Assembly: GCA_036172245.1 (NCBI GenBank)
Contig: JAYWIR010000091.1
Span: forward strand, 62,001 to 126,000
Length of the DNA stretch: 64,000 nt
Source of the DNA: Raillietiella orientalis
Lineage: Eukaryota
Reading direction: 5' to 3'
Under the pieces are notes generated by a model. That model was not told where the DNA came from, searched no databases, and saw nothing but the letters and a program-made list of their open reading frames with translations. The translations under genes and the position numbers were made by a program. The first letter of the stretch is position 1. Every line of letters begins with the position of its first letter. Shown here piece after piece: positions 1 to 64,000 of the stretch.

Positions 1-874
1 CGGACGCCAAGGTGGCAAGTCTCCTGCTGCATCGAGGGACGCGAAAAGTTGATCAGCGGCTGGACAACAATAGAACTGGCAGACGCCACGACCCCGAGCG
101 TCCAGCCGCGAGGACTAAGAAGATGGGGCGAGCTGCTGGCCATCCCTATGGATGTGCTGAAGTGGCCCCCGCTTCTTCAGGAATCCAGGATCCTGCCTCT
201 TAAGTGGAAAGAGTCGGCGTTGCTGTTGTTGCATTGGGGTTTACCCTGCAACGCACGCCGCTCTCACTGGACAAGAGGAGTTGTGGATCCTGCGTGTGTC
301 AGGTGCGGAGAGCGGGAATCGCTCTCCCACCTTATTATGGACTGTGCTGCCCTTCGTCCCCTTTGGAAACGGTTTGGGACGATCCTCGGTCTCCCAACGG
401 GCAGTTCCCCTAGAGACGTTCTTCGGCCCCTCTTCGTGAAAGACGCCCTGCAGCCAGCCGCAGCCCTTGCAGCCTTGTGCTGCGTCCGAGGCATCGTGGC
501 GGCATGGAGCGACACCAACAAGGAAGGAGTGGTTCAACACGCGAGGGATGTCATCCCATATTCCCAATGCTTCTTGCGAAGAGCTGCCGGATGGCCCCAA
601 CTGGGGAATATGAGGACTCACCTCGAGGGCTTCGTTCGACGGATGGGCCCTCTCCACAGCGAACAGTGATCCCTTCCCTGCCCTCCAACTTCTTTTTGTT
701 TGTTTCTTTTTATTTTACTTTTTGTCTTATCCCCATCCCCCTTCGCTGTCGGGGAGTGCCACGCCGGGCTGCGTCCCGGTGTCCCGACAGGTCCTGTGTT
801 TACGGCCGTGGTGGGGCCTAGTACCACGCATGTAAAGTTGATTAATAAACGCCCCGGGCGTACCCGGGTGATAA
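1..874 (+). mobile_element. 3' part of an L1/Tx1-like LINE (probably family D): ORF2 C-terminus, T-rich 3' UTR and hairpin terminus
   Basis: ORF 49..669 has the zinc-finger pattern CVRCGERESLSHLIMDC. It ends AATAAA(844-849)CGCCCCGGGCGTACCCGGGTGATAA, the same end as 33630-33660. Confidence 0.85.
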
Positions 875-1297
875 CGCCGAATTCAAGGGGCAGGCGATCC
901 AGGGGCAACTGCTCACAGAACTCGCGGACGGATTCCTTAAAAAGATCTCAGTCCTGGAGATTCCGGAGCGTGACGCCTTTCAGGTATTCGCGAAGGTGTT
1001 CCTTCGCACCTGAGAGTCGCGTCCAGTCCCCCGGCAGACGCCAATCCCTGGATGGCGGTAATTAGTCGCGAGGCCGCTTCTCGAAAATTAGCCGGGAATA
1101 GTCCAACAACGTCGACACAACCCTCCCCCGTTTGCCGACGCGTGAACACAGGTCAGCGTCCAGGAAGACGTGGTCGATGCTGCGGACCATTCCTCTCTCA
1201 CCCGCGAACAAGTTGCGCGCACGCATCGTGGCGCACAACCCGTTCATCGCGTTCACATGTGTTTCCGGCTCACCTGTTAGCAGGCGGACATTGAAAT
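875..1297 (-). pseudogene. Family D ORF2 endonuclease C-terminal half, continuing the host split at 7205
   Basis: Reads FNVRLLTGEPETHVNAMN...SIDHVFLD...LPLDRLPLEFG. Colinear with the uninterrupted paralog at 44950-45375. Confidence 0.85.
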
Positions 1298-1610
1298 TTA
1301 TCACCCGGTCACGCCGGGGCGTTTATGAATAATAATAAACTGGTCAGGGACAATGTCCTTAACCAACAGAACGACAGAGAACATAGAAAAATTACCGGCA
1401 CGCAGGCCTGGTAAACAAACCGCTCGCAGCGCGGGAGGAATGAGGGGAAACAAACAAAAATCAAAAACTGGAGGGAAGGGTAACGGGTTTTTGGTTAGGC
1501 TCCGTACTCACGGGGATTTATACGATGAGCACCTAACATGTTCCGGAGCCAATGGGGATGCGGGTGTAAAAAGAAAATACAAATTTAGTTTATGGAGGGT
1601 AGGGCAATGA

Positions 1611-4600
1611 TCACCGGGTTGTCCGCTGATGAGGGTGTGTCAACCGGTGGTGTATTGCGGCGAGATTCCTCTTTGTCTCCTCTGTCAAATGAGGCCATCT
1701 AGCGGATGCTCCCATGTAGAAGGATGCTTTGCTGATTACCTCTTGGTGCTGTCCGTTGATTACCAACGCCTGGCGGACGGAAACTATCGCGCGTATGCAA
1801 CCGATGGTTGCAATCCTTGCGCTTAGTGAAAGCCCGCTCGGCGTGAAGAATCGTCGCAGAAAGTCTCTTGCGGTGTCCACGGGATGCAATAGTGCTGTTG
1901 CCAGCCTACGCCACAGTCCTTGTAGGACACCGCAGTCCAGAAGTAGGTGCGGAATCGACTCCGTCGATCCGCACCGAACGCAGTTCTCAGACGCAAGTCC
2001 CCCGGAGTCACGATGCCAACGCTCGTTGCACTGAAAACCCCAGTGAACGAAAACCAGCACGGCTTGTTTCCAAGCAAGGGGGAGCAGCGAACTGTCCATA
2101 CACTGTGGAGGGACTACAAGTTCTTCGGGGGTGACAGCAAGTTCTTCTGTCCACCGGAGGAGTCCCTTTGCAGTAACACGAGGAGTGGCGGCGTCCGCCA
2201 ACTCACTCGTCTTCCAGGCGCCAAGGATTTTGGTTTTCCCGCTATCGTGCAGGAAACCTCCCACCTCGCCAGTTGGTAACTGTCGTTTTTTGCCCTGAGG
2301 GCAGACAGCGCTGCGGCAAGAGGCGTGGCAGCAAGGGTAGAAAACTTCACCTCGTCCTGCAGTACTTCTCCCAAGGATCGTGGAAAAAATTGGCGCAGGG
2401 GGCGAAGATCTTCAGGGCGTATTCCTTGGAACGCCGCCCAGGATTCAACAGACTCCTGCCGCCAAGCTTCAAAGTTCATTGGGCGGCAGGAGATCCAAGG
2501 GTGTGCTTCCAGAAGTGCGGTCAACTGCCGCAATGGAAACCCGAAACCCCGCTTCCTGTATTGAGTACCCGGCAAAAGCGAGAGAAATCCTCCGCTGCCG
2601 GCGCATCTCCGCAGGAGAATGCGAACTTGCACACACAGGGGGGATGTCCATTGCTGGGCACACAGTGCCAGCAGTCGGAACTGCACCTGCAGTCCGATTC
2701 GCTCCATTGTCAAGATACCCAAACCACCATCCAGACGCGGAGCTAAGAAATCTATAAGGCGGATCCTAGGTCTCGCCGGACCCCAGAGAGCGTTCCTGAG
2801 CAGGCGCTTAGCCCGCTGTTTTGCCGCATAGGGGGGGTCCAAAACAAAAAACAGGGGAGGGAGGAGGGAGGCCACAAAGGTGTTCCAAATAGTCGCCCGT
2901 TCCTGCAAGGTAAACTTGCCGTTAAAGAACGGGCTGATGGCCAACTCTGCTTTCTGAAGACAGTCCGCCCACGCTTCGGCTGCGCCGAAAGCGCCCAACG
3001 GAACGCCAAGGTACTTAAAGTACCCGCCCGTGGGGATATCCAGGCGGATCCAGTCGGACTGCCCCTCCCACGACGTACCCACAGGAACGACCACGCTCTT
3101 CTCTCTGTTCACGCTCACGCCCGCTCCCCGACGAATCAGGTCGAAGAAATCCTCGACACTGGACGCCGGGGTGGACATGGGGAGCAGAAGAAGCAGTTCA
3201 TCAGCGTAGGCGGCCACGGCAGGCGTTCCCGGGCAGGAGCTTGGCAAGTAAGACAGCGTCAGCCTGTATGCTCTTAGCACCAACTCAAAGAAGATGCTGA
3301 AGAGCAACGGGATTAAGCTGTCGCCCTGTCGGATGCCCCTACGAACGGGAATACCATACACGCGGCAGCCGCTAAAAGTGATGCAGGTTAGCGCGTGGCG
3401 CCAGCACGCGCGCAAATACAGCAGGAGTTGCGCCGGGAACCCAAGGCGTTCCATAAGCTCCAAAAGCAGCTTCTGGTTTACGCAGTCGAACGCCTTGCGG
3501 AGATCGACGGCGACCGCCAAAGCACCTATCGTTCCCTTCTTCCGTCGGCGCCTGTTTTTCTTGCCTGCGGCAGTGACTTTAGCGGCAGCCTGGCTTTGCT
3601 GCGCCACAACTTCCTGCAGCTGCATCCATGTACGCGCGAAAAGGATGTTCGCCTCCATGGACTGTCCCGGAACCGCGTAGGTTTGTTCCGGGCTCACCAC
3701 AGATTCCGCGATTCTTCCTAACCGCGCGACCCACAGCTTGGAAAACAACTTGACGTCCGAGTTCACCAAGGTGATTGGACGCCAGTTGTTAAGTTGGCGC
3801 AAGTCTCCGCCTTTCGGCAGGAGACGCACCTTCGCTGAGCGGAAGGAATCAGGGACATTCCCGGATTCACTCATCAGCGTCGCCAGTTTCAGCATCAAGG
3901 GAATCAGCTCCACTGCAAAGCACTGATAAAACTCTGCAGGGAGCCCATTCTCGCCTGGCGCCTTTCGTCTCTTCAACTTAGCGATGGCGGACGAAAATTC
4001 ATCCGCCGTGAAGGGCTCGTCGAGACGTTCGCGCTCCTCCTCGCCGACAACACGAGCATCCTGAGACAGGAATATCTCAGAAAGAATATCCTCCGTCGGG
4101 GATTCCGCGTAGAGCGAGGAGTAGTAGCGTGTCACAATGGGGCGTACTTCGGCTGGGGCCGAGCATTCCTGGCCCTTGTCGTCCAACAGGCATGCTGCTC
4201 CGGACTGCCAGACCTGGCGCTCGGCCGTCGCCTTGTACTCTGCAAGACGCCCGACATCCGCGCGTCTCGAAAACGTGCGGGCCTGCAGAAAGTCTTTACT
4301 GTTGGCCACGCCCTCTCCGAAACCGCGTGGAAGCCGGTGCAAGGAGAATTGGCAACAGTACTCGCGGACAGATCTTTTGAGATCGTCCCAGTCCGCAAGT
4401 TCTTGAATGGCAAAGCCCCGGAGGTATTCACGTAGATGCTTCGCAGCCTCCGGTTGGCTAAGCCAATCCGCCTGCATCCTCCAGCTTTGCAACGGAGGCC
4501 CCCTGCCTGGCGGAAGGATCTCAAACTCCAACCTGTGGTGGTCAGAAAGCCTAGTCAACAATCTTCCTCTCCTACCCACACGCGAATGCAGGTTTTCCTC

Positions 4601-5203
4601 GAGGAAAACGTGATCGAGCGATCTTTCCATTCCAGGTTCGCTGACCATCAAGTTGGCGGCGTGCACGGACGCGCACATCTCGTTGGGCAGCGCGCGCTTC
4701 CTCGCGCGGCTCCAATCGTCGGAGAGCAGGCGGACGTTGAAGTCCCCAGCGACGAGGTGCGCCACTTGGAAGCCGGAGTTGTTGAGCCACTGGCTCTGCA
4801 CCTCACCAAAGAAAGCTACTCTTTCTTCGAGGTAGCGAGAGCCACTCGGCGCGTAGACGTTCGTAACGACGAGATCGATGGACTCGGACCACTTGATGAC
4901 AAGCTGGCCTATCCGTCCGTTGTCATCGAAACGAACACTACGCACCGCTACCGCCATTTTTCCTCTTACGAGGAACGCGACGCCGCACGTGTGTGCGCCG
5001 CCGCACCGCCAATGTAGCGTTCCCCCTGCGCGCATCTCCATTTCGGCTGCCTGCTCGTCGGAGATTACGTGAATCTCCTGCAGCAGCGCGAGGTCGAAGG
5101 GGCGCAGGGCGTTGGCTACTAATCGCCTCTTCTCGTCGTTCTGCAGTCCGTTCACGTTCCAACACGTTACGGACAGACGACGAGAAGACGCGATTCCCCG
5201 CAT
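1611..5203 (-). pseudogene. ORF2p (APE endonuclease, RT, zinc finger), family A, disabled
   Basis: Motifs WNVNGL, LQEIH, NVYAP, GDFN, LDH, SDH, KAPGENG, NWRPITL, DLRKAFD, GIRQGD, KYLG. YADE replaces YADD, and a frameshift near 2220-2260 leads into ORF 1611..2264. Confidence 0.92.
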
Positions 5204-7125
5204 TACTGCTGGGAAGGTGGCAGCTTTTTGCTCGCTTTATCCGGCGAGCAGACGGCGAGCAGCACGATTGGCTGGAGGGGACGGTCGCCACCGTCCTCTG
5301 TCGTGCTGCATGCATGTAATGCCTCCACGCCAGGCTTAACCCCGTCGGGTTTCGTGGAGACTTCGCGTTGCTTCGCGGCGAGCGTTGCCTGGCTGCCTAC
5401 TTTTGATCGGCGCGCACACGCTTTCGAACGAGTTGTCCTCGTCTCGGTGATCGGAACGGCATCCATTTCGGAGTCCGACCGGCGCATGTTCGATCGGGTT
5501 TCGGCCTTCCGCGAAGCAGTGACAGGTTCTGCTGGATTGACAGCTGTTCTGTTTTCGTTTTCCGTCACCAGAGCATCGCTTTTGGTGACGGCTGCTTTCC
5601 CGGCGCGCGCGTTTTCAGCGTGCTCACGCGCAGTTGCACGAGGGACCTTTGCTGAAGTCTTCTTTACTTCATTACGGTTCCTCACTTCGCGTGGCGCCGT
5701 AAATGGAGATCGTGCTCCATGGCCATCTTTGAAGCCATCCGCGTCTTTGGACGGGAGCACTTTCGATGGCTCCGACACGCTCGTCATGGACGCTGCCTTC
5801 GGAAGGGCTTTTAATCCCTTCGTTGGCATGGCATCCGCGCCAGTCGAGAGCTTGCTCTCCGACTGCAACGGCGTGAGATTTTTCTCCGCTTTCGCGGTGT
5901 TGGATCGCGACGCGGATTTTTTTTTGCCGACTTTCGAAGTCGACACGGCACAACCCTTCTTACCCGATTTGGGCTTCTCAGCCACTGCAGGAGGTGAAGG
6001 AATGGATCTGACGGTACTGGAAGTGTTCTTACCGCCGTTGTCCATTGACGTCTTCGCCGGTTGTTCGAACTCCGAAAGAGCCGGGCGTGCTTGGGAAGGA
6101 CAGCTAATGCGCCTAGGGGGACTTACCATTGCCCCGGATTCCCCGCACCCTTTCTTTTGCGGCTTCCCTGCCGCGCGAGGGGGTGCGCAGGGCTTCGCTT
6201 GCGAGGTTTCCTGCTGCTTTGGGGCGACATTCCGCCTCGCGTTTTTACCGAATTTCTGCCGTGGGGTCACCAGGTTTTTCGCAGATGTTTTTTTTTTATC
6301 GGCGCTTTGTTTTCTAGGATGGAGCTTCGCGGCTGCCTTTTTTCGCAAAAGATCCGGGCAATTTTTCAATTGGTGCCCGGATAGTTTGCAATAACGGCAT
6401 TTTCCAGAGGGGCATTTATTTAAACAATGCCCTGCCTTCCCGCATTGCTCGCAGGTTTTTACTTTGCCCACGAACCACAGGTGAACGACCGTGTCTTTCA
6501 CCTGTAGTTTGGTGGGCAGCAGACGGCGGTCGGGCATTGTAAGCCGGACTCCAGCGACTCCGCTGTGTATGGACGGGAAGTCCTTGAGGTTGCTACGCAC
6601 CCTCCACAGCGCATGGACCTTGGCGAATTTCGCTAACGCGTTCCGAATATCAGTATCGGAGATTTCCGACTCGATGTCGAAAATCTCCACCACAAATGAG
6701 TCGTCCATGGCGGCCGGGAAGACCTTCTGGCCACGGATCGACAACGGGGTGCGCAGCAAGCGTTGCACAAGTGCAGCGTCTTTGCAACGCACCTTGAAAT
6801 AGCCCATGTCTTTTACGGGCATAATGGCGAGAAGGTCCTCCTCCCGCACGCCAACACGGGTCAGTTCATCGTTGAACTGATTCCCGTAGCGCGCAGAAAG
6901 AAAACCACTCACCTTATATCGGAGAGCAGGTCTATAGCCTTGGGCTACGTATGCCCGCAACTCCGACTCGTCGAGTGGTTTCCCTTCGACGGCTGCTGTG
7001 GCAGCAACGTCAGCAAAACTCCTCTCCATTGGCGAGAAAGACAAAGTGGAGGCGGCCGTAGGTTCCGCGATTGCAGATCCGGATGCTGTTCCTCCAACTT
7101 CAGTAGCTTCAAGTTGGGTCGACAT
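5203..7125 (-). CDS. ORF1p, gag-like nucleic-acid-binding protein with two CCHC knuckles (family A)
   Basis: Open frame with likely ATG at 7125 (MSTQLE). Motifs CEQCGKAGHCLNKC and CRYCKLSGHQLKNC, followed by a K/A/S-rich tail. Confidence 0.85.
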   Translation of the reverse strand: MSTQLEATEVGGTASGSAIAEPTAASTLSFSPMERSFADVAATAAVEGKPLDESELRAYVAQGYRPALRYKVSGFLSARYGNQFNDELTRVGVREEDLLAIMPVKDMGYFKVRCKDAALVQRLLRTPLSIRGQKVFPAAMDDSFVVEIFDIESEISDTDIRNALAKFAKVHALWRVRSNLKDFPSIHSGVAGVRLTMPDRRLLPTKLQVKDTVVHLWFVGKVKTCEQCGKAGHCLNKCPSGKCRYCKLSGHQLKNCPDLLRKKAAAKLHPRKQSADKKKTSAKNLVTPRQKFGKNARRNVAPKQQETSQAKPCAPPRAAGKPQKKGCGESGAMVSPPRRISCPSQARPALSEFEQPAKTSMDNGGKNTSSTVRSIPSPPAVAEKPKSGKKGCAVSTSKVGKKKSASRSNTAKAEKNLTPLQSESKLSTGADAMPTKGLKALPKAASMTSVSEPSKVLPSKDADGFKDGHGARSPFTAPREVRNRNEVKKTSAKVPRATAREHAENARAGKAAVTKSDALVTENENRTAVNPAEPVTASRKAETRSNMRRSDSEMDAVPITETRTTRSKACARRSKVGSQATLAAKQREVSTKPDGVKPGVEALHACSTTEDGGDRPLQPIVLLAVCSPDKASKKLPPSQQ

Positions 7126-7204
7126 CGTCGTCAAAATGTACGACGCCAAGATGAAGCGGATGAAAGCACGGAGACGAGAGCGAAGAAACACACGTCCGCA
7201 CTCG

Positions 7205-9638
7205 ATTGAAATCTCCCGGTATCAGGTGAGCCTTTCGCACATTGGTATCCGCCAGCCAGTCGCGCTTCAGGGTTTCCAACAGCCTGGTGCGGTCGCGGTA
7301 ACCCTGTTTGCGGCTGGGGCCATATACGTTTGTGACGATTAGGTCGATCGAGTCGCACCAGCTGAGAAACAGCTGACGGATCCGACTATCGTCATCAAAC
7401 CACACGCCTTTTACGGCAGCGTCGATGACCGGCTTCACGAAGAACGCGACCCCGGTGGTGTTGCGGATGCCGCATTGCCAGTACAGCGGACCCCCCGCTA
7501 TCGTCTCGATCTCCTGGACGTCTGCCGCGGTGATCACGTGCATCTCCTGCAACAGGGCCAGATCCAACTCCCGCAGGGTGTCTTCTGTATCTCGCCAGTT
7601 ACCGCCGTGGCGCAGCCCGTTGACGTTCCAACAGGCCGCGCGAATCCGAAGGCGACAGGCGAGTCCAGGTGTTAGTCCTGGGAAAACGGCGATGCGGCGT
7701 CTGCCACCTGCTGGGGCGGGACGATAGGTGGAGGGGGAGGGGGGACAGGTACTGAAGGCACCTGTTCCTCGTCCTCCATCGATGGCGGCGCGTCGGCCGG
7801 ATCACCCGCAGGTGGAGTCGCGCCTACCTGTTCGCCTTCCTCCATGGGTTCGAACTGCTCAGGTTTCGCGACGGCAGGGAGGACTTCACCCCCCTGCTCT
7901 CCCTCCTCCATGGGGGTGGGCGACTCGACGGCTTCCGGGCGTGGGTACTCCCCCTCCGGGATTCCCACGCTGCCGCTTCCTTCCGGTTTCTCCTCCCCGC
8001 TGGTGGAGGGGAGGCGCCTCCTGGGTTTCTGGGACTTGCGTCCCGACTTCCTGGGGAGGGCCTCCGAGGAGGAGGATCCGCTTGCGGCCCCCAGGTCGCA
8101 CTCACCTGCGGGGGCCTTGGTCGTCGGAGCCGACTTGCGTACGCCCTTGCGCGACGGGGTTTTGCGCTTGGCGAGCGTTGCTGCGAGCTCCTCCGCCGCT
8201 TTCTCGACGGCCGCGTCTTCGCCAGCGGCAACCGTTGCCGCGGGCTGCTCCGCGAGCTTATCGAGCGCGGAGTCATCGCTGACGGCGAACGTTGTCGCGG
8301 GCTCCTCCGCGACTTTATCGAGCGCGGCGTCCTGGCTGTCGGCGCGCGAGTCTCGCGTCTCACCCTCTAAACGTAGAATGGGCTCGTCCACCCGAGTACT
8401 TATCGCGTCCGGAGCAGCTGTTCCGCGAACATTGCCGAGGGCGGACTCGGCAGGAACGGCTAAGCGTTCCAGTGCCACCGAGCATTCGCGGAGTTTTTTT
8501 TTTGAAAGCGGCGCGGCTTTTTTCTTGTTGCCGGCAGTTTTCTTCTCCGAATTTTCTTCTATCATCACTTTCTTTTTTTTCTCTTTTCTGGCCTGAACCA
8601 GCTGCCAACCCTCCTCCATTCCCGCGTCCACGGGAGCTCTTTCCTCTGACGTCTGTACGGGAGGAAGGGAGGCTGGCAGTTGGGAACGGCCATTTTCGCT
8701 AGCTGGTCTTTCTACCAGCTTTCCACGTTTTCCCTGCGCCTTTTTGGCGGCAGTGGGCACCGGGGTGGGGCGCTTCAAGCTCACGCGCCGAACGTGACCC
8801 TTTTCGCCGCATTTGGCACACAATGTTCGGGCACCTTTCTCGTAGATGCCCTACTGCATTGCAGTAGCCACAAAATTGGCGTTTCCCCACGTACCAGAGG
8901 TCCACCGCTTCTTGGCAGACCTCCAGCTTGTGGGGAAGCGCACCACCCTCTTTTACTGTGATACGGGCCGCAGCTTGACCTCCGAAAAGGCTATTGTAGC
9001 CTTGGAAAATCGTGGACTTCGGCCACAACGCGTGCACTTCTCCGTGCTTTTGTAGCTGTTCTCGAACCGCTGACCTCGTCATGCGACTGGAGATCCCAGT
9101 GAGATGGACCACCACCGAGCGGTCCATCGTTATCGGCAAGATCTTCCGACCATCAACGATCAGCGGGTCGGTGATCAGGTGTCGGGCCAAGGTGATATCC
9201 TTGCATACCACGTCGACCCGCTGCCCGCCGCTGAGGACGCAGAGGCCGTCCAGATCTTTTTCGAAAATATTGGCGTTTTGCAGCGCCTTCGTAAAGGCGC
9301 GTGCAGTTCGTTCATCGAAAAGGTTGCCTACCTTGTAGACTAGCGAGGGTTTATACCCCGCTTTCTTGTAGGCTTCCATCTCGGCCATGGCTTCCACGCT
9401 AGGCGCGGCAACCATGGCTCTCCATGACCTCGGCGTCGCCGGGGACGATTCCGGGGCGGATGCCCTTAATCCAGTAGGCTGTGGGGACGAACAAGCCTCC
9501 ATCACGCCTACTTCCATCGCGGTGTCCTTTGGCAACGCTGCCATCGGACACCGACGATGTGCACGCACAAATCACTCAAGAAGAAAAAACGCTCGCTTTG
9601 TCACGCAGGCGGAGCGCAGGAAAAGCACGTCCGCTCTC
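7205..9638 (-). mobile_element. 5' part of a family D LINE: frameshifted ORF1 (about 9544-7672) and EN N-terminal half
   Basis: 5' motif GAGAGCGGACGTG at 9638-9626. Knuckles CGYCNAVGHLRERC and CAKCGEKGH. EN motifs CWNVNGL, LQEMH, NVYGP, GDFN. Confidence 0.87.
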
Positions 9639-10482
9639 CACAGCGGAGATTTGGCGAGGGAGTCAGGAACGAGCGGGCATATCTTTAGTCCCGCGGTCAT
9701 TCCAGGCGTCCCAAAGTCCGACGCCTGTCAGAATTTAAGGCTGTGGCGGAGAGGCAGGCCTGGCAGTCAGGCTCGGCTGGCTTGCTGGTCCATCAGGGCC
9801 AAGACCGCTCGATCCCAGGTCACGTAATCCGCATCGTGCGGGAGTTCTATTCCTCCTTTTACGCGCCACTAACACCGGAGCCTCATTTCGCGCAGCGCCT
9901 GCTGACGCATGGCCTCCCTGTTCTCAAGTAGGAGAATCGTTTCAGGTTGGCAGAACCGTTCACGATGCTAGTGGTCGTCTCTGTCATCAGCAGGCTGGAG
10001 AATAGGTAGGCACCAGGAGAGGACAGACTGCCCGAGGAGCTTTACAAACACTTCGCGCCAGAGCTGGCCTTCCTGGTGCTTACATTAAGTACGCTGATCC
10101 GCGAACACAAGGAAGTTCTCGCCTTGTTCCGGTCAGCAAAAGTACGTCTCCTGCCGAAGTCAGGACACTTACGCAACATTGGCAACTGACGTCCCATCAC
10201 GGTGATGAATGCGGACGCAAGGCTGCATGCCATGTTGTGGACTGAGCGTTTGGGGCGGGTGGTTGCTTCCGTGATCAGTCCGAAGCAGACCTACGCTGTT
10301 CCGCGACGAAGCATGGAGTCAAATCTGCTCCTCGCCAGCACATAGTAGCAGTTGCGACAAGGCAATGCCTAGGAAAGTTAAGGGAGTCTTGCGCTCCTCT
10401 CTGACCAGAAACATCGGATGGAGGGTAGAAGGGACCTTGCGGAAGCCCTTGCAGTCGCGGTCGACTCTCACAAAGCATTCGA
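9639..10482 (+). pseudogene. Decayed ORF2 fragment (linker to RT KAFD) of an E-like LINE
   Basis: Reads FGEGVRNERAYL, AERQAWQSG, FRSAKVRLLPK, VAVDSHKAFD, with many stops. Confidence 0.8.
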
Positions 10483-13510: not shown

Positions 13511-13526
13511 CTCACAAAGCATTCGA

Positions 13527-19766: not shown

Positions 19767-19780
19767 CGCTGTCTCGGCAG

Positions 19781-49348: not shown

Positions 49349-51253
49349 ATGGCCAGTACACAGGATAGTGTGGAGGAGCAAGCCACTGGATGCACTTCAG
49401 CTGCACTTGAAGTGGCCGCATCCTCCGTAATGGTTTCATCGCCCCCGGTGCGGAGTTACGCCGCCGTTACCTCCCGAAGACCAGGACCCTGCGATGCGGA
49501 GTTCCAGGCATATGTGTCATCAGGATACATGCCTGCACTCCGTTATAAGGTCAGTGGGCCACTTAACGGGAGACTCGGTCGTGAGCTCAATGATGAGCTC
49601 GTCCGGATAGGCGTTCGCGAGGAGGAACTCCTTGCCATAATGCCTGCTGGCAGGATGGAATATACAAAGATTCGGTGCAAGAACGCAGCACTTGTGCAGC
49701 GCCTTCTCCGTACGCCGTTGACCATCAATGGCAAGGAAGTCCTACCTACCGCGATGGACGACTCTTTTGTCGTTCAATTGTGCGACATCGAACCGGAAAT
49801 CTCCGACCGCGATGTCGTAAATGTGCTGGCGAAGTTCGCCACCGTGCACGCTCTGTGGAGGAGGCCAAATCCTCTAAAGGATTTCCCCTCTGTCCACATT
49901 GGACAAGCCTCCGCGAGGATCACCGTCGCGAACAGGCGTGTTGTGCCTGAGCAGCTGCAGGTGAACGGCACGGTCGTTCACCTGTGGTTCATAGGCCAGA
50001 CTCGCGCGTGAGAGCAGTGCGGCAAGGATGGGCACCGAATTAAAGAGTGCCCCTCTCCAAGATGCCGCTATTGCAAAGATTCCGGGCACGAAATCAAGAA
50101 GTGCCCGGTACTTGCAAGAAAAAGAGCCGCAGCGGAAATTCGTCGGGTTCAAGAGACCACTGCACGAAAAGCCGCAGCGGCAAATAAAAAACGTCGTCCG
50201 CAAAAACTCGAAAAAAACCACGAGCGATCCGCGGATAACAAGAAAGCATCCCCGCCCGCAACGCCCCGAAAGGGGAAAGTCACGGCGGGGAAGCCAATTA
50301 AAAAGGGGCGCGAGGGTTTGACGCGTGCCGTGCCTTCCCTCTCTGCCGAACTCGCAGGCACCTTTCCGAACCTGGAACCAGGAAATCTCCGTAACACCCG
50401 GGAGGGAAAGGTAGGAAAACAGGAAGATCGCAACAGTGCGAAGACTTCTTGCCCCATTCCGTTGTCCCTTCCGAGTTCCGGACAGCCCCACTGCAGCGCA
50501 GGCCCCACTGCAAAGGCTACGAAAGCCGTAAAAAGCAGCGTCGCAACAAGCAAAAGCACGCTGCATGCAGTCGCCCCATCGCCGACTCGGCAGGAGAGGA
50601 GCAATCTCCCGACTGTCAAGAAGGTGACTCCGTTGCCGCCTTTTAAAGGCGTAGCGAAAGCAACGCCCCCAGAGAACGCAGCGAAAATCCCGGAGGTTTC
50701 CGCAACTACTGTCGCGGAAGCTTCCGAAAATCGCGAAGGCGAATGGAAGGTTGTGGAGAGGAGGAAAGGAAAATCTCCAAAGAAAGCTCCGCAACCTCCA
50801 TCCCTGAGCTCTTCCAAAGGAAAAAGCAGTCGCGCGAATACGAAAACACGCGCGGCTTGTGACTCTTCCAAGGAAAAAGCCAACGCCTTCAACGCGTGCA
50901 AGTCCGCTTCTGTGACCGCCGAGAAGACCATTCCGGTGCAATCGGACGGATGCAAGCGCACGTCGATCGTGCGAGCATCAGACTTCGCAAAGGAGTCCGA
51001 TAACGCAGCTGAACGACGCGTAACTCGCGCGGGAGCGAGCGCCCGCAGGGCTGAAGCCCTGAGGCGTGACACACTCGCCGCGGAACGGCGAGTGCTCACC
51101 CCGGAACCCACAGGTTCTGCACCCGGGGAGGAGCACCCGATTACGTGCAGCACAGTTGAGGCCGGTGGCGACCGCGCCCTCCAGCCCGTCGTGCTGCTTA
51201 CTGCCCGCTCGCCGGGTGAGGCGAGCACCACGGCCTCGCTTTCCCAGCCGTGA
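49349..51253 (+). pseudogene. Family C ORF1p with one premature stop (50009-50011, Cys TGC to TGA)
   Basis: ORFs 49349..50011 and 50318..51253 are in the same frame. Two CCHC knuckles. The paralog has TGC at about 55968. Confidence 0.88.
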
Positions 51254-54200: not shown

Positions 54201-54824
54201 TGCAAAATAGCGGGAGTCAGTAAGCTCCTCGGCAGCTGGACGACAAAGGAGCTGGTGCAAGCCGCCACACCTCGGAATCGGGCGAAGGGACTGCTTCGGT
54301 GGAGCGAACATTTAAGTGTGCCCCCCGGAGAGATAGTGGTTCCCCCCGTTTGTTTGGACAGCTCCGTGTTCCCCCTTAAGTGGAAACAAGATGTGCTCCT
54401 CTTTTTACATTGTGCATTTCACTGTAATAGGCAGCGAAGCATCGTTTCCGGGGGAGCTGCTTTGCCAAACTGTTTAAGGTGCGGAGAGATCGAGTCTTTT
54501 CCGCACCTTGTGTTGGACTGCGGTGACCTCCGGGAACTGTGGCGAAGGCTCACTTCGGCCATCATGCCACAAGGAGGCACTGCCATTGATGTGCTGCGGC
54601 GCTTCTTCAGCAGAAATGGACTTTCGGGTGGCGCGATTGTCGCAACCATGTGTTGCGTTCGCGCCATCGTGAAGGCCCGCTACGCCCTGGAGTTGTCATC
54701 GCAGCGAAGGGAGGCTCACCTGCTTGCAGCTCAATTCATGGAGAAGGCTTCAAGGTGGTCTCATCTTCGTGACAAGGTGAATGAGGACATCACCGGCATA
54801 CATCGCCGGTTTACACACCTTTGA
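51253..54824 (+). pseudogene. Family C ORF2p (EN, RT, zinc finger) with stops at 52723 and 53050 and a frameshift near 53620
   Basis: Motifs WNVNGL, GDFN, SDH, DLHKAFD, GIRQGDSLSP, YADD, RYLG, CLRCGEIESFPHLVLDC. Confidence 0.92.
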
Positions 54825-56552
54825 GAACGGCGTAATCCGGTGACCCCTGCGACCTCTCGCCCACCCATACCCCGTCCCTGTTCGCTCGGTAAAATTTCCG
54901 GTGCCCATGCTTTTATCCCCGTGTCTTCCAGAGCGATCCCAAAGACCCTTATCCCGTCCCCCTTATTCATTGTTTTTATTTTTTTTTGGTTTCTTTGTGT
55001 TTCCCGCCCCCCCACACCGTTCACAAAACTGTTACTCTGGCCTGCGTGCCAGCAATATTCTCTTCATTCTTGTTCAGTCGTCGGTTGGGAGTTTGGTTCC
55101 CAACTGGTTTATTTTGTATAATTGCTTTTTTTTTGGTTATGTTATATGGAATAAACGCCCCGGCGTGACCGGGTGAGAAATCTCCTGCGCTCGTACAGTG
55201 CAGACGTGTTTCCGCGTTTATCCGCGCCAACGATCGGGCAACTTCGTGCCTGGGTTTTCGCTCTCACTTGTGTGTTCCTCTGCAATCTGCCAAGTGACAT
55301 AGTGCAACATGGCCAGTACACAGGATAGTGTGGAGGAGCAAGCCACTGGATGCACTTCAGCTGCACTTGAAGCGGCCGTATCCTCCGTAATGTTTTCCTT
55401 TCCCCAGTGACGAGTTGCGCCGCCGTTACCTTTTAAAGACCAGGACCCTGCGATTCGGAGTTCCAGGCATATGTGTCATCAGGATACATGCCTGCACTCC
55501 GTTATAAGTTCAGTGGGCTTCTTAACGGGAGAATCGGTCGTGAGCTCAAGGAGGAGCTCGTCCGGATCGGAGTTCGCGAGGAGGAACTCCTTGCCATAAT
55601 GGCTGCTGGCAGGATGGAATATACGAACATTAGGTGCAGGAAAGCAGCACATGTGCAGGGCGTTCTCCGTACGCCGTTGACCATCAATGGCAAGGAAGTC
55701 CTACGAACCGAGATGAACGACTCTTTCGTCGTACAATTGTGCGACATCGAACCGGAAATCTCCGAGCGCGATTTCGTAAGTGTGCTGGCGAAGTTCGCCA
55801 CCGTGCAAGTTGGGTGGAGGAGGCCAAATCCTCTGAAGGATTTCCCCTCTGTCCACATTCGAAAATCCTTCGTGCGGATCATCGTCGCGAACAGGCGTGT
55901 TGTGACTGAGCAGCTGCAGGCGAGCGCCACGCTCGTTCACCTGTGGTTCTTAGGCCAGAATCGCGCGTGCGAGCAGTGCGGCAAGGAGGGGCATCGAATT
56001 AAAGAATGCCCCTCTCCAAGATGCCGCTATTGCAAGGATTCGGGGCACGAAATCAAAAAGTGATCGGTACTTGCAAGAAAACGAGCCGCAGCGGAAATTC
56101 GTCGGGTTCAAGAGACCACTGCACGAAATGCCGCAGCGGCAAATAACAAACGTCGTCCGCAAAAACTCGCAAAAAACCACGAGCGATCCGCGGATGAACA
56201 GAAAGCATCCCCGCTTGCAACGTCCCGAAAGGGGAAAGTCACGGCGGGGAAGCCAATTAAAAAGGGGCGCGAGGGTTTGATGCGTGCCGTGCCTTTCCTC
56301 TCTGCCGAACTCGCAGGCATCTCTCCGAGCCAGGAACCAGGAAATCTCCGTAACACCCTGGAGGGAAAGGTAAAAAAACAGGAAGATGGCAACAGTGCGA
56401 ATACTTCTTGCCCCGTTCCCTTGTCCCTTCCGAGTTCAGGACATCCCCACTGCAGCGCAGGCCCCTCTGCAAAAGCTATGAAAGCCGTAAAAAGCAGCGA
56501 AGCGACGAGCGAAAGCACGCTGCATGCAGTCGCCCCACCACCGACTCGGCAG

Positions 56553-59500
56553 TTTTCCGCAAGTCCCACGAGAGGTGGGGTCAATTTATTTTTCTAAAAT
56601 TTTTCTATAAAAACATTCACACTACAATCTCATCCATACCATTGGCACTTTTTTTACCATTATGAAGTCCTTGGGTTCTCACAAGTTCAGCACTCATGGT
56701 GCGTTTCCTGTTGTTTGGTCCCGGGCGTCGTCTTCTATCCCCTTCAGGATGAATCGCTACGTCCAGGCTTGGATTTTCCCACAGTTTCTGATGCCGATTT
56801 CCCTCTTCAGGAGCCCTTGTAGGATCTCCATCGGTGGTGCGGCTCTTCTGTCTTTCCTCATATTCCACCACCGCACAAGTATGGCGGTGATGAAGAGGGC
56901 GATGGTCGTCCTCACCATGGGATTGTAACACGGAACATTACCATCCCCCTGAAACATCCCGGCGAGGATCTCCATTACGGACCTGGTGGTGAGTCCGATT
57001 ATCCTTTTCAGGATCAGCCAGTCATGCAGCAATGTGGGACACGTCAAGACGTGAAGTCTCGTGGCGATGTCTCCACATGCTGTGCAATCTCGTTCTTCCG
57101 TTCTTCCGTTGTAGTGCTGCAATCGGGACGCACTCTGGATTCCTCCATGATAAAACATCAGGAGTTCATCCTGGGTGCCCGGCGGAAGGTCACTCCTCCA
57201 TAACGTCGTGCCAATTGCTAACAGGTTGATCCGGTCACTCCCGTAGCGATCGGTGGCTTCCTGGAGGGCACTAATATCACTGTGTTCTTCTTGAATTAGT
57301 CTTCGGAGGTTTGTTTTGGTTACCCTGGAGCACGCAAAGTCCTTGTGATTGAACCACACTTCGCGAGTCATGTGGGTAAACCTTCCTAACATCATCTCTA
57401 TATACCTAAGTATACGAGTGTGATGTAGGTACCCTCCTCGTTTCCACTCCTGGATTCGTTGAAGGGTAACTCTGGACCGCTGGTGGATCCAGCTTCTCGT
57501 GTCCGGCGGGACAGGAAGCATCCAAGGGATCACCAGGATGGAATCGTCCTGCCAGAGTTCCCTACTTCTCGGCACGATCTTGATTTTGTGCTTTCGCACC
57601 AGCCGTTGCTTCCTCGTCCCGGATGGGTCGTTTTTTTTCCATTCGCCTGCTCGGCCTAGCAGCACAGTCATCAGGCCTTTGGAGTTGTTCAACAACAACG
57701 CGTAGGCCCTGTGCGCCGCATACGGCCAGTCATCCCAGTAATAGGCAATGTCCAGGATGTGTCGCGTATCCATGATTTATATGGAGTGTGCAAGCGACTT
57801 CATCCAGGAACCGCCTTCTTCCCTGGGGCGACACAGGGGTTTTAGTCGGACTCTTGGGCGATAGTGGCCCCACAGTGTTTTTCTCTGCAGCTTGTCGAAC
57901 TCCCTCGTGGTTTCCTTGTTGATCCTCACGAAGGCCGCCCGAAGACCACTTTTGGAAGGAGTACTCCGTTCCATATGTTGGCCGTTCGCTTCATTCCAAG
58001 GTCCGTTCGGGTGTACTTGGCTGCTTCCTTGGCCGTTTTTCCTAGAATCTCGGTCCACAATAGCTTTGACGCGAAGACGACGCCAATGTAGACACCCAGG
58101 TACTTGGCCTTGTCCAACGTTCGGAATCCTCTCCCCGCTAGAGTGGAGAGATCGAAGATTCCAACGGGCAAGAGCTGGCTTTTCTGAACGTTGATCTTTA
58201 GACCCAGGCCTTGATCCATCAGGTCTACCACATCCAGAAACGCTCGTAGATTTCTCTCTTACTTGATAAAGAAGAGTAGATCGTCAGCGTATGCCAGATG
58301 GGTAAGACGCTGGCCATCGATTATTATGCCTTGCAGTCGTCCGCTCTTCTCGATAAAGGACGACAACGCTTCCATGTAGATGACGAACAGCATCGGACTT
58401 AGCGAATCGCCCTGCCCCCGGATCCATCCGGATTGCTGCCGTCTCATGGCCGTTGATTTTGATTCGGCAGTACTGGTTCTGGTGTACCACCCTCACGAAG
58501 CTGCTGAAGTGTTCCGAAAGGCCTAGCTTCTCCAGAACCATCAGCAGCATCCCATGGTCGATGGAGTGGAAAGCCTTCTCCATGTCAGTGGACACCAGCG
58601 CCAGGTTCTCTCCGACGTATCGCCTGAGTCTCACGGTGGCCTGGGCACACTTAACATTGTCCGACATGTGACGTCCAGAGACTGCACACGTTTGGACCGG
58701 AGAGATGAACCTCCACATGAACTTGCCTCAGCGGTTGGACCAGATCTTCGCCAACCACTTGCCATCGGAGTTCAGGATCGAGATTGGCCTCCATTGAGCG
58801 ACCTGCGTGAGGTCGCCTCTTTTTGGCAACAATCTCATCGGACTCTCGTAGAAGGACTATGGAAGTCTTCCTTCTTCGCGGATGCAGAGAGTCAACTGGT
58901 GGAACAAACGCAGGTAGGCATGAAAGTACTGCTGATAGTGAGTGATGGGTACGCTTTCAGGGCCCGCTACCACGTCCTTGCGTAGTTGACCAAACGTAGT
59001 CTTCACCTCGTCTTCAAAGAATTCGTCCTCCATTCTGTTTCGCTGGAGATCGTCGGTCCTCTTCTCAAGGTAGCTCAGATAGGCCTGTTGACTAGAGCGA
59101 GAGAGGTGTTGTCGCTTAAAGTGTTTTATGTAATGCCTTTGAAAGGCATCCACGATGTCCTCAGACGACTGTCGCTTTTGACCGTCGAACTGGATGCCGA
59201 AGATATCTGTTGCCAGATTTCTCTTCTTCAGCACGCCGACTTTCCCTTTTATGTTCTTGAAGACGTACCGACTCTCGTACTGATCGAAGTACTTTGAGAG
59301 TGAGCGATCTTGGATGTTCAGCTGCCTGTACGCCTCCTGCCTCAAGCGCCTATCTCCCAACTGCATGTTTGCAAACAGGTATATCCTGTGTTTCAGGCTG
59401 TGCCAGTGGACGACTTTTAGGATTGGTTTTGCCTTCAGAATCGTCTCCAGGACAGCCTGATTTCCGGGATGGGTTTCGAACCAGGCGGGCATGCTGATGA

Positions 59501-62200
59501 GCGCCGCCCTGGTGCCTTCCCTCCGCCAAGGATTTTCCGTTCTTAGGGAAAACCTCACCAGGGGGTGATCGGACACCGTAGTCATAGTGTCGGGAAACCC
59601 CTGGATGCGGTTCCCAAGTTCGGTGTTGTGCAGGACGTGATCGATCGGCTTGTGACTTGCAGTTCGCCACACCAGTACGAACTCGTCGGATAACCACCGA
59701 TACGCCGTCCTTCATCTGGCGTCTTCGGAGTGAGTGATCTCATCCAATATTTTTAAATCGCCAGCAACTGTCACGACGTCCTTCGGGCAACCTTCTCACG
59801 GAGTGATGCATGCAGCGCCTCCGCACAACGATGTTTCAGCCTGTGCGGCCCGTGCACGTTCACCAAGATGAGGTGAACAGTAGCGGACCAGCCCAGTCGC
59901 ACGCCGATTATTCGTCCGGTTTGGGGACAGAACACTTCCAGAATAGTGGTGGCCAAGTTCTTCTTGATTAGGACCGCCACTCCATGCGTGTTTGGTTCTT
60001 CCTCGCTGACGAACATCTGACCGTTGAATCGCCATTCCCTTTGCTGATTAATCTCGAGATTCATCTTGTGGGTCTCCTGGAAGCTCACTATGTCTTGTTG
60101 TGCCATGGTCCGCACAATCCTTTTTCTTTTTCCCCGGTCGACCACAACGTTTACATTCCAGGAGGCGATGTTCAGCCTCTTGGCGTTTGATGGGGAAGAG
60201 GCCATAAAAGGGGAAGACCTATTTCTTGGCCTTCCTGAGCTTATTCTGTCTGAGAGAGCGTGCTCTTCCAGATAATGAAGAAGCAGCGGGCTTCTCGCTG
60301 CCGGCGTCACTCTTTGTTCCGGTGAGGTCGGTTACTTCCGCCTCCTCCGTCGAGTGTTCGGCCCGCGCGATCAGTTTTCGAGATAGCGTCTCTATCTGTC
60401 CTTGGCGCAGAAGTTCGTCTTTACGTCGAGAAGCTGTTTCTCTAGCTTTACGCGCTCGGTGACCTTCACAAACTGGTTGACCTTCTCCTATGCATTGCAG
60501 ATCTTCTGCAAGATTTTCTCTGGATGGGGACCGCTCTGCACATCTAGGACTTCATTACCCAGTGATGCCAACTCCTCGGTAGATTGCAGGGCCTCCTGCG
60601 ACACCGGAGTGGCTTCGGCTATTTGTTCTTCCGCGCCTTCCTGCGCTACCTCCATCTTCTTGTTTTCTTGCTTTATACCTTCCAGGATAAGAGGGGTTTC
60701 TTGCTTCTTGACGAGCTTTTTCTTCTTTTCTTTCTTCCCTACCTGTATGAAGCCGTCTTCCGATACCGGAACGGCTTCTTCCACCTTCTTCGGCCTTCCT
60801 GCCTTCTGAGGCTGTTCCGCCTCCTTGGTGTTTCTCTCTTTCACGGGAGAAAGACTTTGAATCCTTCTGCAGTTTGCAAACTCCGGACAGCTCCATTTGG
60901 CATGTCTGTGTATCTTGCAGAAGGAGCACACCTCCGGCTGCGGGCAGTTTCGCACTTGATGTCCTACTTTGCCGCAGCGGAAACAACGACACGTTGGGCA
61001 AGCGCCGGCCCTGTGGACGACTTGCTTGCACTCGGTGCAGAATATCGGTTGTTGCCGGTAACGCACGTTCACTCCCTGGAATTGTTCGTCAAGAACGGCT
61101 AATCCAGGTATCACAGCTCCCTCTTTCAACTTCATTTTGGCGATCATGTCGCCTGAAAACATATTTCCAGAGAAGTTCTAGAATTCAAGGTCCAGAACTT
61201 CCCCATACAGCTCCAAAAAGTTCCAAACCGTTAGTTGCGGTGTGAGGATGGAGATGCCGTTCAGAAACACGGTTGTGTATGGCATCTCGCCAACACCACA
61301 AACCATCCTCCCTTGTATATTGATCCCCTCCTGGATCAATCGCTCTCTAATCTCTTCACAGTCTGTAAAGAATTTGAACCCGTTGTTTGCTGGTATGATC
61401 GCCTGTATGCGATCAAAATTGATATCCGTTTTATCGAAAGACACATACACCTCCCTGATATTATTGAACTTGATCAGCCCAGTCTTGAAAATGATGGCCT
61501 TCACATTCGGCCCTAACTGCACGATCGGCCGATCCACCTTTTAGACTTTACCGCATAGCGGCTTCCCGAATTTTCTTGGTGGGTGGACACTCGCTCGTCC
61601 AGCCGCCACCGACGCATAGGAAAAGGGCTGCGCCGCCGCAGCCGAACAAGATGGCGTCTCGCCTTGAACCGCGTGGACGCCCGCGGATCCTGCTTGGGAC
61701 GACGCCGCCCCGAGCGCAACCCTCGACGTCGCCACCGTTGCCACCGCGGGCGGCACCCTCGGCATCGCCGCTACAGGCGCGACCTTCCCCCCCGTGGGCA
61801 CGATCCTCGGCGTCGACGCCGCGGGCACGACCTCCGCCTTCGTCGCCGCGGGCACGACCTCCGCCTTCGTCGCCGCGGGCACGACCCTTGGCATCGCCGC
61901 CGCCGGAGGAGCAAAGCCCGTCGCGGGCGCGATCCTCGGTATGCCTGCCACCGCCTCTCCGTTGCCGCACGTTCCCTCCATGGCTTCCATTGGGGACGAC
62001 GGTCTCTCCACTCCTCCTCTAGGTGCCTGCATCCTGACAGCTGGTCTTGCTGCACGGGACCACTGCTGGTCTTTTGCCGCGATCTCCTAGCCACTTCTTT
62101 TGTAGTTTCGTCTGGAAAACTTCTCCTCGCCGGGCACACACGAGCACAAGTAACTGATTAAGTTGTCGAGCGCACAATACTTTGAGCCGCGAAGCAAGTT
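56553..62200 (-). mobile_element. Full-length family F LINE (about 5.65 kb) with a 14-bp TSD, disabled
   Basis: CACCGACTCGGCAG at 56539-56552 and CACTGACTCGGCAG at 62201-62214. ORF1 and ORF2 motifs as in the other F copies. Confidence 0.92.
61735..61930. repeat. 27-bp in-frame coding minisatellite (VVPAATKAE-like units) in the F ORF1 N-terminus
   Basis: CGCCGCGGGCACGACCTCCGCCTTCGT is repeated. Fewer units at about 19350-19480, and the tract is deleted at about 37600. Confidence 0.75.
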
Positions 62201-64000
62201 CACTGACTCGGCAGGAGAGGAGCAATCTCCCGCCTGTCAAGAATGTGACTCCGTTGCCGCCTTTTGAAAGCGTAGCGAAACCAACGCCCTCAGAGAACGC
62301 AGCAAAAATCCCGGAGGTTTCCGCAACCTCTGTCGCGGAAGCATCCGAAAATGTCGAAGGCGAATGAAAGGTTGTGCAGAGGAGGTAAGAAAAACCTCTA
62401 GAAAAAGCTCCGCAACATCCATCCCTGAGTTCTTTTGAAGGAAAAATTAGTCGCGGGAATACGAAAACACGCGAGGCTTGTGCCTCTTCCAAGGAAGAAG
62501 CCAGCGCCTTCAACGCGTGCAAGTCCCCTTCTGTGACCGCGAAGAAGACCATTCCGGTGCAATCGGACGGATGCAAGCGTATGTCGATCGTGCGAGCATC
62601 AGACACCTCAAAGGAGTCCGATAGCGGCGCTGAACGAAGCGTTAATAGCGTGGGAGCGAGCGCCCGCAGGGCTGAAGCCCTGAGGCGTGACACACTCGCT
62701 GCGGAACGGCGAGTGCTCACCCCGGATCCCACAGTTTCTGCACCCGGTGAGGAGCACCCGATTACGTGCCGCACAGTTTAGGCCGGTGGCGACCGCGCCA
62801 TCCAGACAGTCGTGCTGTTTACTGCCCGCTCGCCGGGTGAGGCGAGCATTACGGCCTTGCTTTCCCAGCCGTGATGAGGGCAATCGCGTCTTCTCGCCGT
62901 GTTGCCGTAACGTCTTGGAACGTCAACGGGCTCCAACACGAGGAAAAGAGGCGACTAGTGGCTGACGCTCTGCACGCCTCCGACTTGACGCTCTTGCAGG
63001 AGATACACAGCATCTCTGAAGAGCAGGCTGCCGAAATCGAACGGCGCGCGGGCGGAACGCAACTTTATAGGTGCGGCGTTGCACCTACGTGCGGAGTCGC
63101 TTTTCCCGTGCGAGGAACTTTTGCAAGAGTGGTGCGAAGCGTTTGCTTCGACGCGGAAGGCACAGTGGGACAGCTTGTACTCAAGTGGTCCAACTCGATC
63201 GACCTTGTCGTAACGAACGTGTACGAGCCGAGTAATGCTCGACGATGGGCCAAAATAATTGAGTTCTTCGGTAGCCTTCAAAGCCAGTGGCTCACCCGAT
63301 CTCACCCTACTGTTGCTTATCTCATTGCGGGGGACTTTAACGTCCACCTGCTTTCCGAGAATAGGTCCCACAAAAGGGAAAAGTTGCTAGCGGTGGAGAT
63401 GTGCGCGTCCGTGCACGGGTGCCACTTCTTCGCTAGCGACCCTGTTATGGCAGCAACGCCGGACCACGTATACCTTGATGAACACTTGCTCTCTCGAGTG
63501 GGTCGGAGAGGTCCCGTGCCGTCCGTGCTTTCCGACCACAACAGGCTCGAGTTCGAGTTGCTTCCGCCAGGCAAGGAGCCTCCAAACTGTTTTTGGAGAA
63601 TGCGGCAGACTGGCTAAGCCACCCTCAGGCGGCTAAGCATCTTCTGCAGTACCTCCTCGGCTTTTCCATAGTGAGCTCGAGGACTGGGACGATCTGAAAA
63701 GATCGGTCCGCGGGTTCTGCTGCCGGTTTCCCTTGCTCCAGCTTCCGCGCGGCTTCGGAGAGGGCGTAGCCAACAGAGGAGATTTTCTGCAGGCCCGCTT
63801 TTCTTCCAGGCGCGCGGACGTTGGTCGATAATCCGACTACAAGGCCAAGGCCGAGCGCCAGGTCTGGCAGTCAGGGGCGACAGTTCTGCTCGACGACCAG
63901 GACCGGGAATGCTGGACTCCAGCCGACAAGCGACGGATAGTCAGGCGCTATTACCCTTTTCTGTATGCAGAGGCACCGATGGAAGGCAGTCTCTCCTGGC

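Follow-up and report, generated by a model that had tools for sequence, protein, structure and literature searches.

What decides where a retrotransposon inserts when the DNA around it consists of other retrotransposons? The question is raised by a 64,000-nucleotide stretch of the Raillietiella orientalis contig JAYWIR010000091.1 (positions 62,001 to 126,000; hereafter the window, to which all coordinates refer), in which long interspersed nuclear elements (LINEs) are inserted into one another. We propose that the window is a nest of L1-like LINEs from at least five lineages, each of which would integrate by target-primed reverse transcription (TPRT) at its own short sequence in the open reading frames (ORFs) of other LINEs, and we put the probability of this reading at about 0.8. 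The involvement of TPRT is read from four properties of the junctions: a position fixed within a base or two, a fixed orientation, a target-site duplication (TSD) specific to the class, and tandem insertions that reuse the TSD.

The anatomy of the nest was built from self-BLAST, a protein map and reads of the junctions in the orientation of the insert. It includes 17 elements with at least one true terminus, and five class-specific sites within LINE coding sequence account for 22 of their 23 termini (12 3' ends and 11 5' ends). These sites are termed KAFD (used by K1g, K2, K3+y and G), QAQEI (PQ1, PQ2 and Q''), LPxGFG (C, E30b and B), GDFN (A and A2) and R (R_a, R_b, R_c and R_d). Inside each class the position of the 3' junction is constant within 1-2 bases and the length of the TSD is fixed, at 7-8, 14 or 16 bp. 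Insertions of the GDFN class are in the sense orientation of the host, opposite to those of the four other classes, which are all antisense. An initial annotation of the window, which did not mention this difference in orientation, had held that every terminus sits at a family-specific LINE site; this applies to 22 of the 23, the exception, absent from its list, being the 3' end of the fragment H2 at ~30334, which lies at a sixth site. The 19 junctions listed there were all true element termini at the motifs it named, with the correction that three of them (13511, 19767 and 55180) are tandem joins made through a TSD copy and not direct abutments on a host ORF.

The same sites recur in different hosts. 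In the 8 same-class pairs of 3' junctions, identity is 73-93% over the 200 bp on the insert side and 53-65% over the 200 bp on the host side, against a baseline of unrelated 200-mers of the window with a mean of 56% and a maximum of 73%. The hosts themselves have diverged: the host fragments H1 and w share 45% amino acid (aa) identity, and B and the fragment q share 50%. Since the inserts are alike while the host flanks are near the baseline, duplication does not explain the pattern, and the earlier statement that the sites recur in different host families is borne out. At least four coincidences of the same nucleotide and the same orientation were found between different hosts (K1/K3, C/E30b, Q''/PQ1 and R_a/R_b). 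By our own arithmetic, which assumes uniform insertion over a 6-kb body and two strands, the odds of each are about 1 in 12,000, and chance is excluded for the shared junctions.

The window has a G+C content of 52-59% and contains no N over its 64 kb. Direct LINE homology (LINE protein homology plus internal repeats) covers 93.5% of it; 13 gaps of 80 bp or more, together 4,168 bp, are uncovered and all are internal to elements, in ORF1 linkers or untranslated regions (UTRs). A tblastn search with ORF1 and ORF2 of element A tiled nearly the whole window on both strands, and a search of the window against Rfam gave zero matches, in agreement with the earlier claim that no DNA other than transposable elements is present. 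In A ORF2, Pfam identified Exo_endo_phos at aa 26-233 (E 2.5e-11) and RVT_1 at aa 474-745 (E 8.3e-18), and the closest solved structure is human L1 ORF2p (E 4.9e-45), with R2 proteins at ~1e-14. By these similarities the elements are identified as L1-like LINEs predicted to encode an apurinic/apyrimidinic endonuclease (APE) and a reverse transcriptase (RT). In PQ1 ORF1 the Pfam zf-CCHC domain was found under the cut-off (17 bits versus 20.8, E 0.0064); A ORF1 gave zero zf-CCHC match, and two CX2CX4HX4C strings were spotted by eye in its translation. Hallmarks of TPRT are present in the TSDs of 7-8, 14 and 16 bp and in the 5' truncation of w where it adjoins the fragment v; for the partial copies K2, K4 and E30b, truncation and deletion are both possible. 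The nesting reaches a depth of up to four, for example H2 > G > PQ'' > R_d.

The KAFD class is inserted antisense with a 16-bp TSD. The 3' ends of its K members, at 10483, 13527 and 46202, adjoin TCGAATGC / TCGAACGC, where the (K/E)AFD codons of RT motif A are read on the reverse strand. At the same site the 5' end of G adjoins TCGAAAGC at 28214; read in host sense, the first nick falls after ..AAAGCATTCGA in motif A. K1g (10483-13510, minus strand) adjoins, by its 3' end at 10483, the host fragment H1 (9640-10482, plus strand), which spans ORF2 aa ~304-584 between an LPxGFG and a KAFD site. K1g has an internal deletion near 12746 that fuses ORF1 aa 248 to ORF2 aa 523. It stands in tandem with K2 (13527-15255, minus strand), the 3' part of a KAFD-class element from ORF2 aa 710 to the 3' end, whose upstream side was lost by a locus-specific deletion at ~15254. 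Between the two lies a 16-bp TSD copy (13511-13526; host-sense CTCACAAAGCATTCGA) equal to the end of H1 at 10467-10482. G (26244-28213, minus strand) is the 5' part of a KAFD-class element, with the 5' UTR, ORF1 and ORF2 aa 8-66; its own 5' end is inserted at the KAFD site of H2 (28214-30334, plus strand), a host fragment that runs from ORF2 aa 575 to the 3' end and has a C-like 3' UTR. K3+y (46202-49233, minus strand) is one element with an internal deletion near 48147, and its 3' end occupies the KAFD site of w. A model with a single deletion, in which H1 and H2 were one element and K2 the 3' part of G, was rejected, as the TSD copies at the KAFD sites differ at 5-6 of 16 bases.

Members of the QAQEI class are likewise antisense with a 16-bp TSD, and their 3' end adjoins TCTCCTGCGC. 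The exact 11-bp core of this site, GCGCAGGAGAT, occurs three times in the window (26254, 49230 and 55190) and adjoins a PQ-family terminus in all three cases; it is confined to K-type hosts, where it follows the LLQEI endonuclease motif at a distance of 11 codons, and the first nick in host sense falls after ..GCGCAGGAGA. The site of K3+y is filled by two elements. PQ1 (49234-55180, plus strand) is full-length, ~5.95 kb, with broken frames and a 16-bp TSD at 49218-49233; a copy of this TSD at 55181-55196 (TCTCCTGCGCTCGTAC) separates it from PQ2. The latter is present as a 5' piece up to the R site of its ORF1 (55197-56552, plus strand) and a continuation (62201-64000, plus strand) that resumes after R_b and extends beyond the edge of the window. 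The site of G is filled by Q'' (21650-26243, plus strand), which runs from the R site in ORF1 to the 3' end adjoining G.

The LPxGFG class is represented by two 3' ends, at 875 and 33661, and by the 5' end of B at 9639, all antisense; the first nick in host sense falls after ..TTTGGCG / TTTGGGG. C (1-874, plus strand) is the 3' part of such an element and adjoins its host B at CGCCGAATTC. E30b (32026-33660, plus strand), from ORF2 aa 706 to the 3' end, adjoins its host q at CCCCAAATCC; q (33661-34168, minus strand) is a K/y-like fragment covering ORF2 aa ~140-307. B is itself the host of C at its LPxGFG site and of A at its GDFN site, and is thereby split into a downstream piece (875-1296, minus strand; about ORF2 aa 165-307) and an upstream piece (7205-9639, minus strand) with ORF2 aa 3-167, ORF1 and the 5' UTR, the 5' end of which is inserted at the LPxGFG site of H1.

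In the GDFN class the opposite strand is nicked, ahead of TTTCAAT. A (1297-7204, minus strand) is full-length, ~5.9 kb, with an ORF1 of ~640 aa and an ORF2 of 1040 aa from stop to stop, and lies in sense within B with the TSD TTTCAAT: at 1297/7205 the host reads GGAGATTTCAAT ahead of the 5' end of A, and TTTCAAT is repeated after its 3' end. The 5' end of A2 (~44023-44029) comes after GATTTTAATGTTCGCCTT, at the GDFN codons of v (44030-44342, minus strand), a K/y-like host fragment of ORF2 aa ~70-170. A2 is in turn split into a downstream piece (35023-37306, minus strand; ORF2 aa 1-528 and the end of ORF1), with 79% aa identity to A, and an upstream piece (42692-44029, minus strand) with ORF1 and the 5' UTR.

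The element that splits A2 belongs to the R class, which is found antisense in ORF1 of PQ- and A2-type hosts with a 14-bp TSD; its ends lie at 37306/42691, 56552/62200, 19767-80 and 21650, and the first nick is at the end of the 14-bp TSD CACYGACTCGGCAG, within ±3 bases. R_a (37307-42691, plus strand; ORF1 of A2) and R_b (56553-62200, minus strand; ORF1 of PQ2, TSD 56539-56552 / 62201-62214) are full-length, and the frames of R_a are broken. R_c (15256-19766, minus strand), the 5' 4.5 kb of an element, is in tandem with R_d (19781-21649, minus strand), which has two internal deletions with joins at 20866 and 21561-21593; a 14-bp TSD copy (19767-19780) lies between them.

Head-to-tail tandems are thus present at 13511, 19767-80 and 55181-96, each with a single TSD copy as its spacer; for both K and PQ this copy matches the TSD of the host at 16/16 bases. 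In classical site-specific LINEs, too, copies occur in tandem at a single site. The insertions are reciprocal at the level of classes, as had been proposed: K3+y lies within the B-like w, and the C-like E30b within the K-like q. Sites without an insert are found as well. PQ1 carries an empty R site (50580-50593), as an uninterrupted paralog. In w (44343-46201, plus strand; truncated at its 5' side in the end of ORF1 and reaching ORF2 aa 584) the KAFD site is filled by K3 and the GDFN and LPxGFG sites are empty, at 44950-44961 for A and at 45366 for the LPxGFG class; y has a further empty LPxGFG-class site at 48504. In the public DNA run X1, which contains 52% of the sampled words of element A and gave 277 contigs on 1-20000, mostly 90-95% alike and with 144 loose ends, one contig joins 1288 to 7204 and omits 5,915 bp, that is, A plus one TSD; this contig is a B-like copy without A and supplies a further empty site. 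No RNA run was listed as carrying words of element A.

The A, PQ, K and B/C classes and H2 have a common 3' end consisting of AATAAAC, a CCGG-type hairpin of 5-6 bp, GTGA and 2-4 bases that are mostly A, as at the 3' end of C; a poly(A) tail is absent from these ends. The four classes also have a common 5' start of the GCGGACGTG type, and the R family has its own distinct ends. A motif scan of the window recovered 5 hairpin 3' ends and 8 matches to the 5' motif, 6 of them at element 5' ends. Junction sequences read by eye indicate that, at the nick, the 3' terminal bases of the elements are not complementary to the primer strand, and this speaks against simple microhomology. An AATAAA-like hexamer stands right before the terminal hairpin, ~25 nt from the element end; hexamer and hairpin were located at 848-874, 1297-1324, 26217-26243, 33634-33660, 55153-55180, 10483-10510, 13527-13555 and 46202-46230. 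Such a hexamer would put RNA cleavage at the element boundary, and its presence hints that the host uses polyadenylation signals of the AAUAAA type. A metagenome scan with the 3' hairpin pattern returned 53 loci, none homologous beyond the pattern, and these were set aside as chance matches.

Relationships among the lineages were analyzed in a quick IQ-TREE search on the RT and C-terminal region with 13 rows from the window and 19 external proteins. All window rows other than R form one clade with two unnamed external fragments (SH-like approximate likelihood ratio test, SH-aLRT, 100), and R is their sister (99). Within this clade the KAFD class is monophyletic (SH-aLRT 100), and the PQ class is one clade (100), sister to A (98). 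The target classes follow the phylogeny. In comparisons of at least 100 columns the R family is 16-30% identical in aa to the other lineages; among its own copies, R_c shares 88% identity with R_b and 92% with R_a. Although the endonuclease domains of A and PQ1 match at 67% and their RTs at 78%, the two use different sites in opposite orientations. Among 1.84 billion representative proteins, the close relatives were three fragments 56-69% identical to A ORF2 (P0057, P0150 and P0152, all unnamed, of which P0057 looks K/y-like), and the next-best proteins were 21-38% identical; relatives of this LINE group are thereby present in other public data. P0058 was discarded as a relative, being an unrelated tandem RT protein.

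How could such a nest arise? A sequence-specific first nick would prime reverse transcription, and a second nick, which lies 7-8, 14 or 16 bp away, gives each class its TSD of fixed length. As the TSD restores the target beside the insert, a second copy can enter the same site and leave a head-to-tail tandem with one TSD as spacer. New inserts would bring fresh target sites, and the domain would presumably feed itself and stay free of other DNA. By analogy with what is established for R1, Tx1 and 'stringent' LINEs, the specificity would be set by the endonuclease of each lineage, and the common end of AATAAAC plus hairpin may be the signal at which the RT starts, which would account for the missing poly(A) tail. 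The lineages themselves are probably a single radiation with changed targets.

Three other explanations were weighed against the site-specific reading. The sites may reflect a few ancestral nested insertions that spread through segmental duplication, gene conversion or unequal crossing-over. Duplicated blocks do exist (21649-26255 versus 50579-55191 at 92.6%; 21593-23449 versus 62144-64000 at 94.3%), and R_b and R_d share 86% identity in their 5' host flanks, so that this pair may go back to a single insertion duplicated afterwards. However, all eight same-class 3' pairs combine similar inserts with dissimilar host flanks, the hosts are of different lineages, and the tandem copies have diverged from one another, as in R_c. 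The initial annotation had named this outcome, a single copied ancestral insertion behind the junctions of a family, as the one that would overturn its view; in the window it is contradicted for all classes and survives only for the pair R_b/R_d, and we regard it as highly improbable. Alternatively, the target could be chosen by base pairing instead of by the endonuclease, the tail of a read-through transcript with a copy of the target annealing at the new site. A role of this kind has been proposed for 3' read-through sequence in some ribosomal DNA (rDNA)-specific LINEs. A read-through RNA would carry the target, since a copy of it, the TSD, follows every insert, and tandem arrays favour read-through. 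But AATAAA ~25 nt before each end and the conserved hairpin point to a defined 3' end of the RNA, the element ends cannot pair with the primer strand, and a nick at a fixed base would still require a specific nuclease, which makes this explanation unlikely.

Integration could also be guided to a chromatin domain, for instance a centromeric one, by elements whose endonuclease is loosely selective, the sites being local hot spots. The window is purely LINE, many good target cores are empty, and nested clusters of Zepp and ZeppL at putative centromeres are described in the parts of the literature consulted (PMC8226300, PMC3446292). A loose preference would, however, scatter the junctions, whereas the 3' junctions match within 1-2 bases in unrelated hosts, TSD length is fixed per class and the exact 11-bp QAQEI core is occupied in 3 of 3 cases. 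We consider it quite unlikely as the explanation of the sites, while domain targeting could still overlay sequence specificity.

Several observations weigh against the site-specific reading or limit its reach. The whole claim is carried by 15-17 events in one 64-kb window, and the class of the fragments that lack a terminus (w, q, v and H1) rests on 45-65% aa identity. The rows of the tree were assembled from tblastn alignments to A and the search was quick, so that the tree gives guidance but no proof. The 3' end of H2 (~30334, hairpin-type; window 30285-30360) adjoins the ORF1 of E30a at ~aa 222, in sense orientation, at a different, sixth site in LINE coding sequence; E30a (30335-32025, plus strand) is an A/PQ-like piece from that point of ORF1 to ORF2 aa 122. 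The junction marks a sixth target or else an off-target insertion. The flank of H2 begins with CGCCA, the same five bases as one LPxGFG-class target. Occupancy of sites is only partial, since good target cores are empty: the KAFD core of K1 itself has 0 mismatches, and those in PQ1, Q'' and A have 1-2. The fragment w is B-like, yet its truncated 5' end (44343) lies 25-30 bp downstream of the expected QAQEI site of v, so that the class of w, or its join, is ambiguous. In the 3' hairpin, compensatory changes were seen in 0 of 5 pairs; the structure is conserved, though not proven. Both ORFs are open in A alone, and this sole copy has YADE in the RT box (window 3190-3215, ORF2 aa ~675-680), not the YADD of PQ1, K3 and three R copies; judged from this motif, A, despite its open frames, may not be an autonomous master.

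Finally, about nine joins fit no class (12746, 15254, 20866, 21561-93, 32025, 34168, 35022, 44343 and 48147); they have no terminal motif and look like deletions or rearrangements. The join at 15254 is local to this locus, as X1 contigs continue past it as R sequence. The breaks at 15254 and 20866 fall at an identical position of the R element (57637 in R_b, 41607 in R_a), and the segment between them resembles a circular permutation of R; both breaks may stem from template switching or from a hot spot of recombination. The joins at 34168 and 35022 bound K4 (34170-35022, plus strand), an internal K-family fragment without the last 80 bp, both of whose joins are non-canonical. K4 is 853 bp long and lies between q (aa ~140) and A2 (aa 528); it may have entered A2 at the KAFD site and lost its junctions to later deletion. 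That q continues v was ruled out, as q has its own intact GDFN region. ORF1 of A2 (36596-37306 and 42692-43847) bears a weak likeness to that of A (5203-7221), with 31% over the end, in contrast to the 79% aa identity of the two in ORF2; it has DNA matches of 76-79% to PQ ORF1 and carries the R target, which is absent from A ORF1. This suggests either modular exchange or very fast evolution of ORF1.

Combined, these results support, within the window, the earlier proposal that several lineages have their own targets inside other LINEs. A wider picture can be drawn tentatively, at odds that we put a little short of even: one ancestral L1-like LINE would have radiated within this genome, the endonuclease of each lineage being redirected to a conserved coding motif of its own in the other lineages (RT motif A, an APE motif, an ORF1 site or one of two sites in linkers). 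The LINEs would then be their own multicopy safe haven and depend on one another, in domains made of transposable elements only, possibly centromeres, with host genes left untouched. Site-specific LINEs are valued as models of how a retrotransposon finds a place where it does no harm, and as starting points for inserting DNA at chosen targets. If the site-specific reading is true, the window offers several closely related endonucleases with distinct targets of 10-16 bp in known orientations, a series in which APE specificity and its switching could be mapped, as between A and PQ. It would also provide a mechanism, at the level of sequence, for the start and growth of LINE-only islands such as the Zepp-type clusters, which are candidate centromeres of some algae, and a clean case of transposons that partition a niche made of one another, beyond mere nesting.

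The comparisons that follow draw on portions of the cited publications. In architecture, and in that alone, the window is likened to the clusters of Zepp in Coccomyxa subellipsoidea C-169 and of ZeppL in Chlamydomonas and its relatives, which are also L1-type, nested, partly tandem and made almost only of themselves. Those clusters target existing copies and involve one family, or one or two, per species (PMC8226300, PMC3446292, PMC9940879, PMC11005252, bioRxiv 2025.03.28.645958). In the parts of these accounts consulted no base-level target site was seen, whereas here at least five lineages have targets of 10-16 bp and a fixed orientation. Tx1 of Xenopus laevis, which enters Tx1D, and the Tx1-mobilised SINEU-3, which enters Mariner-N4_AMi, are directed by the endonuclease (PMC4494074, PMC6719617). 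They are APE-type elements of the L1/Tx1 group and, like the present elements, use a specific site inside another transposon. Their targets, as described there, are non-autonomous DNA transposons, and the relation is one-way, with one target for one family; in the window the targets are conserved coding motifs of LINEs, the insertions are reciprocal and the sites are split among related lineages.

The classical site-specific LINEs, such as R1 and R2 in 28S rDNA, Keno and Utopia in U2 snRNA genes and Kibi and Koshi in microsatellites (PMC4640811, PMC4494074), have in these sources the same precise target, fixed orientation and multicopy target as a safe haven. They target host genes or simple repeats, whereas here the LINE population takes the place of the multicopy gene. 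Nested long terminal repeat (LTR) retrotransposons of plants favour particular regions of other elements (PMC6911290, in the part consulted); these are integrase elements with a regional, statistical preference, in contrast to a site fixed within a base or two. A search of full-text literature and of a centromere atlas preprint turned up no group of LINE lineages that apportion target sites within each other; the original Zepp paper and Repbase lay outside this coverage, and an earlier description is possible. Site-specific LINEs and Zepp-like nesting are already known, and the novelty of the window would lie in several lineages that share out the LINEs themselves as targets.

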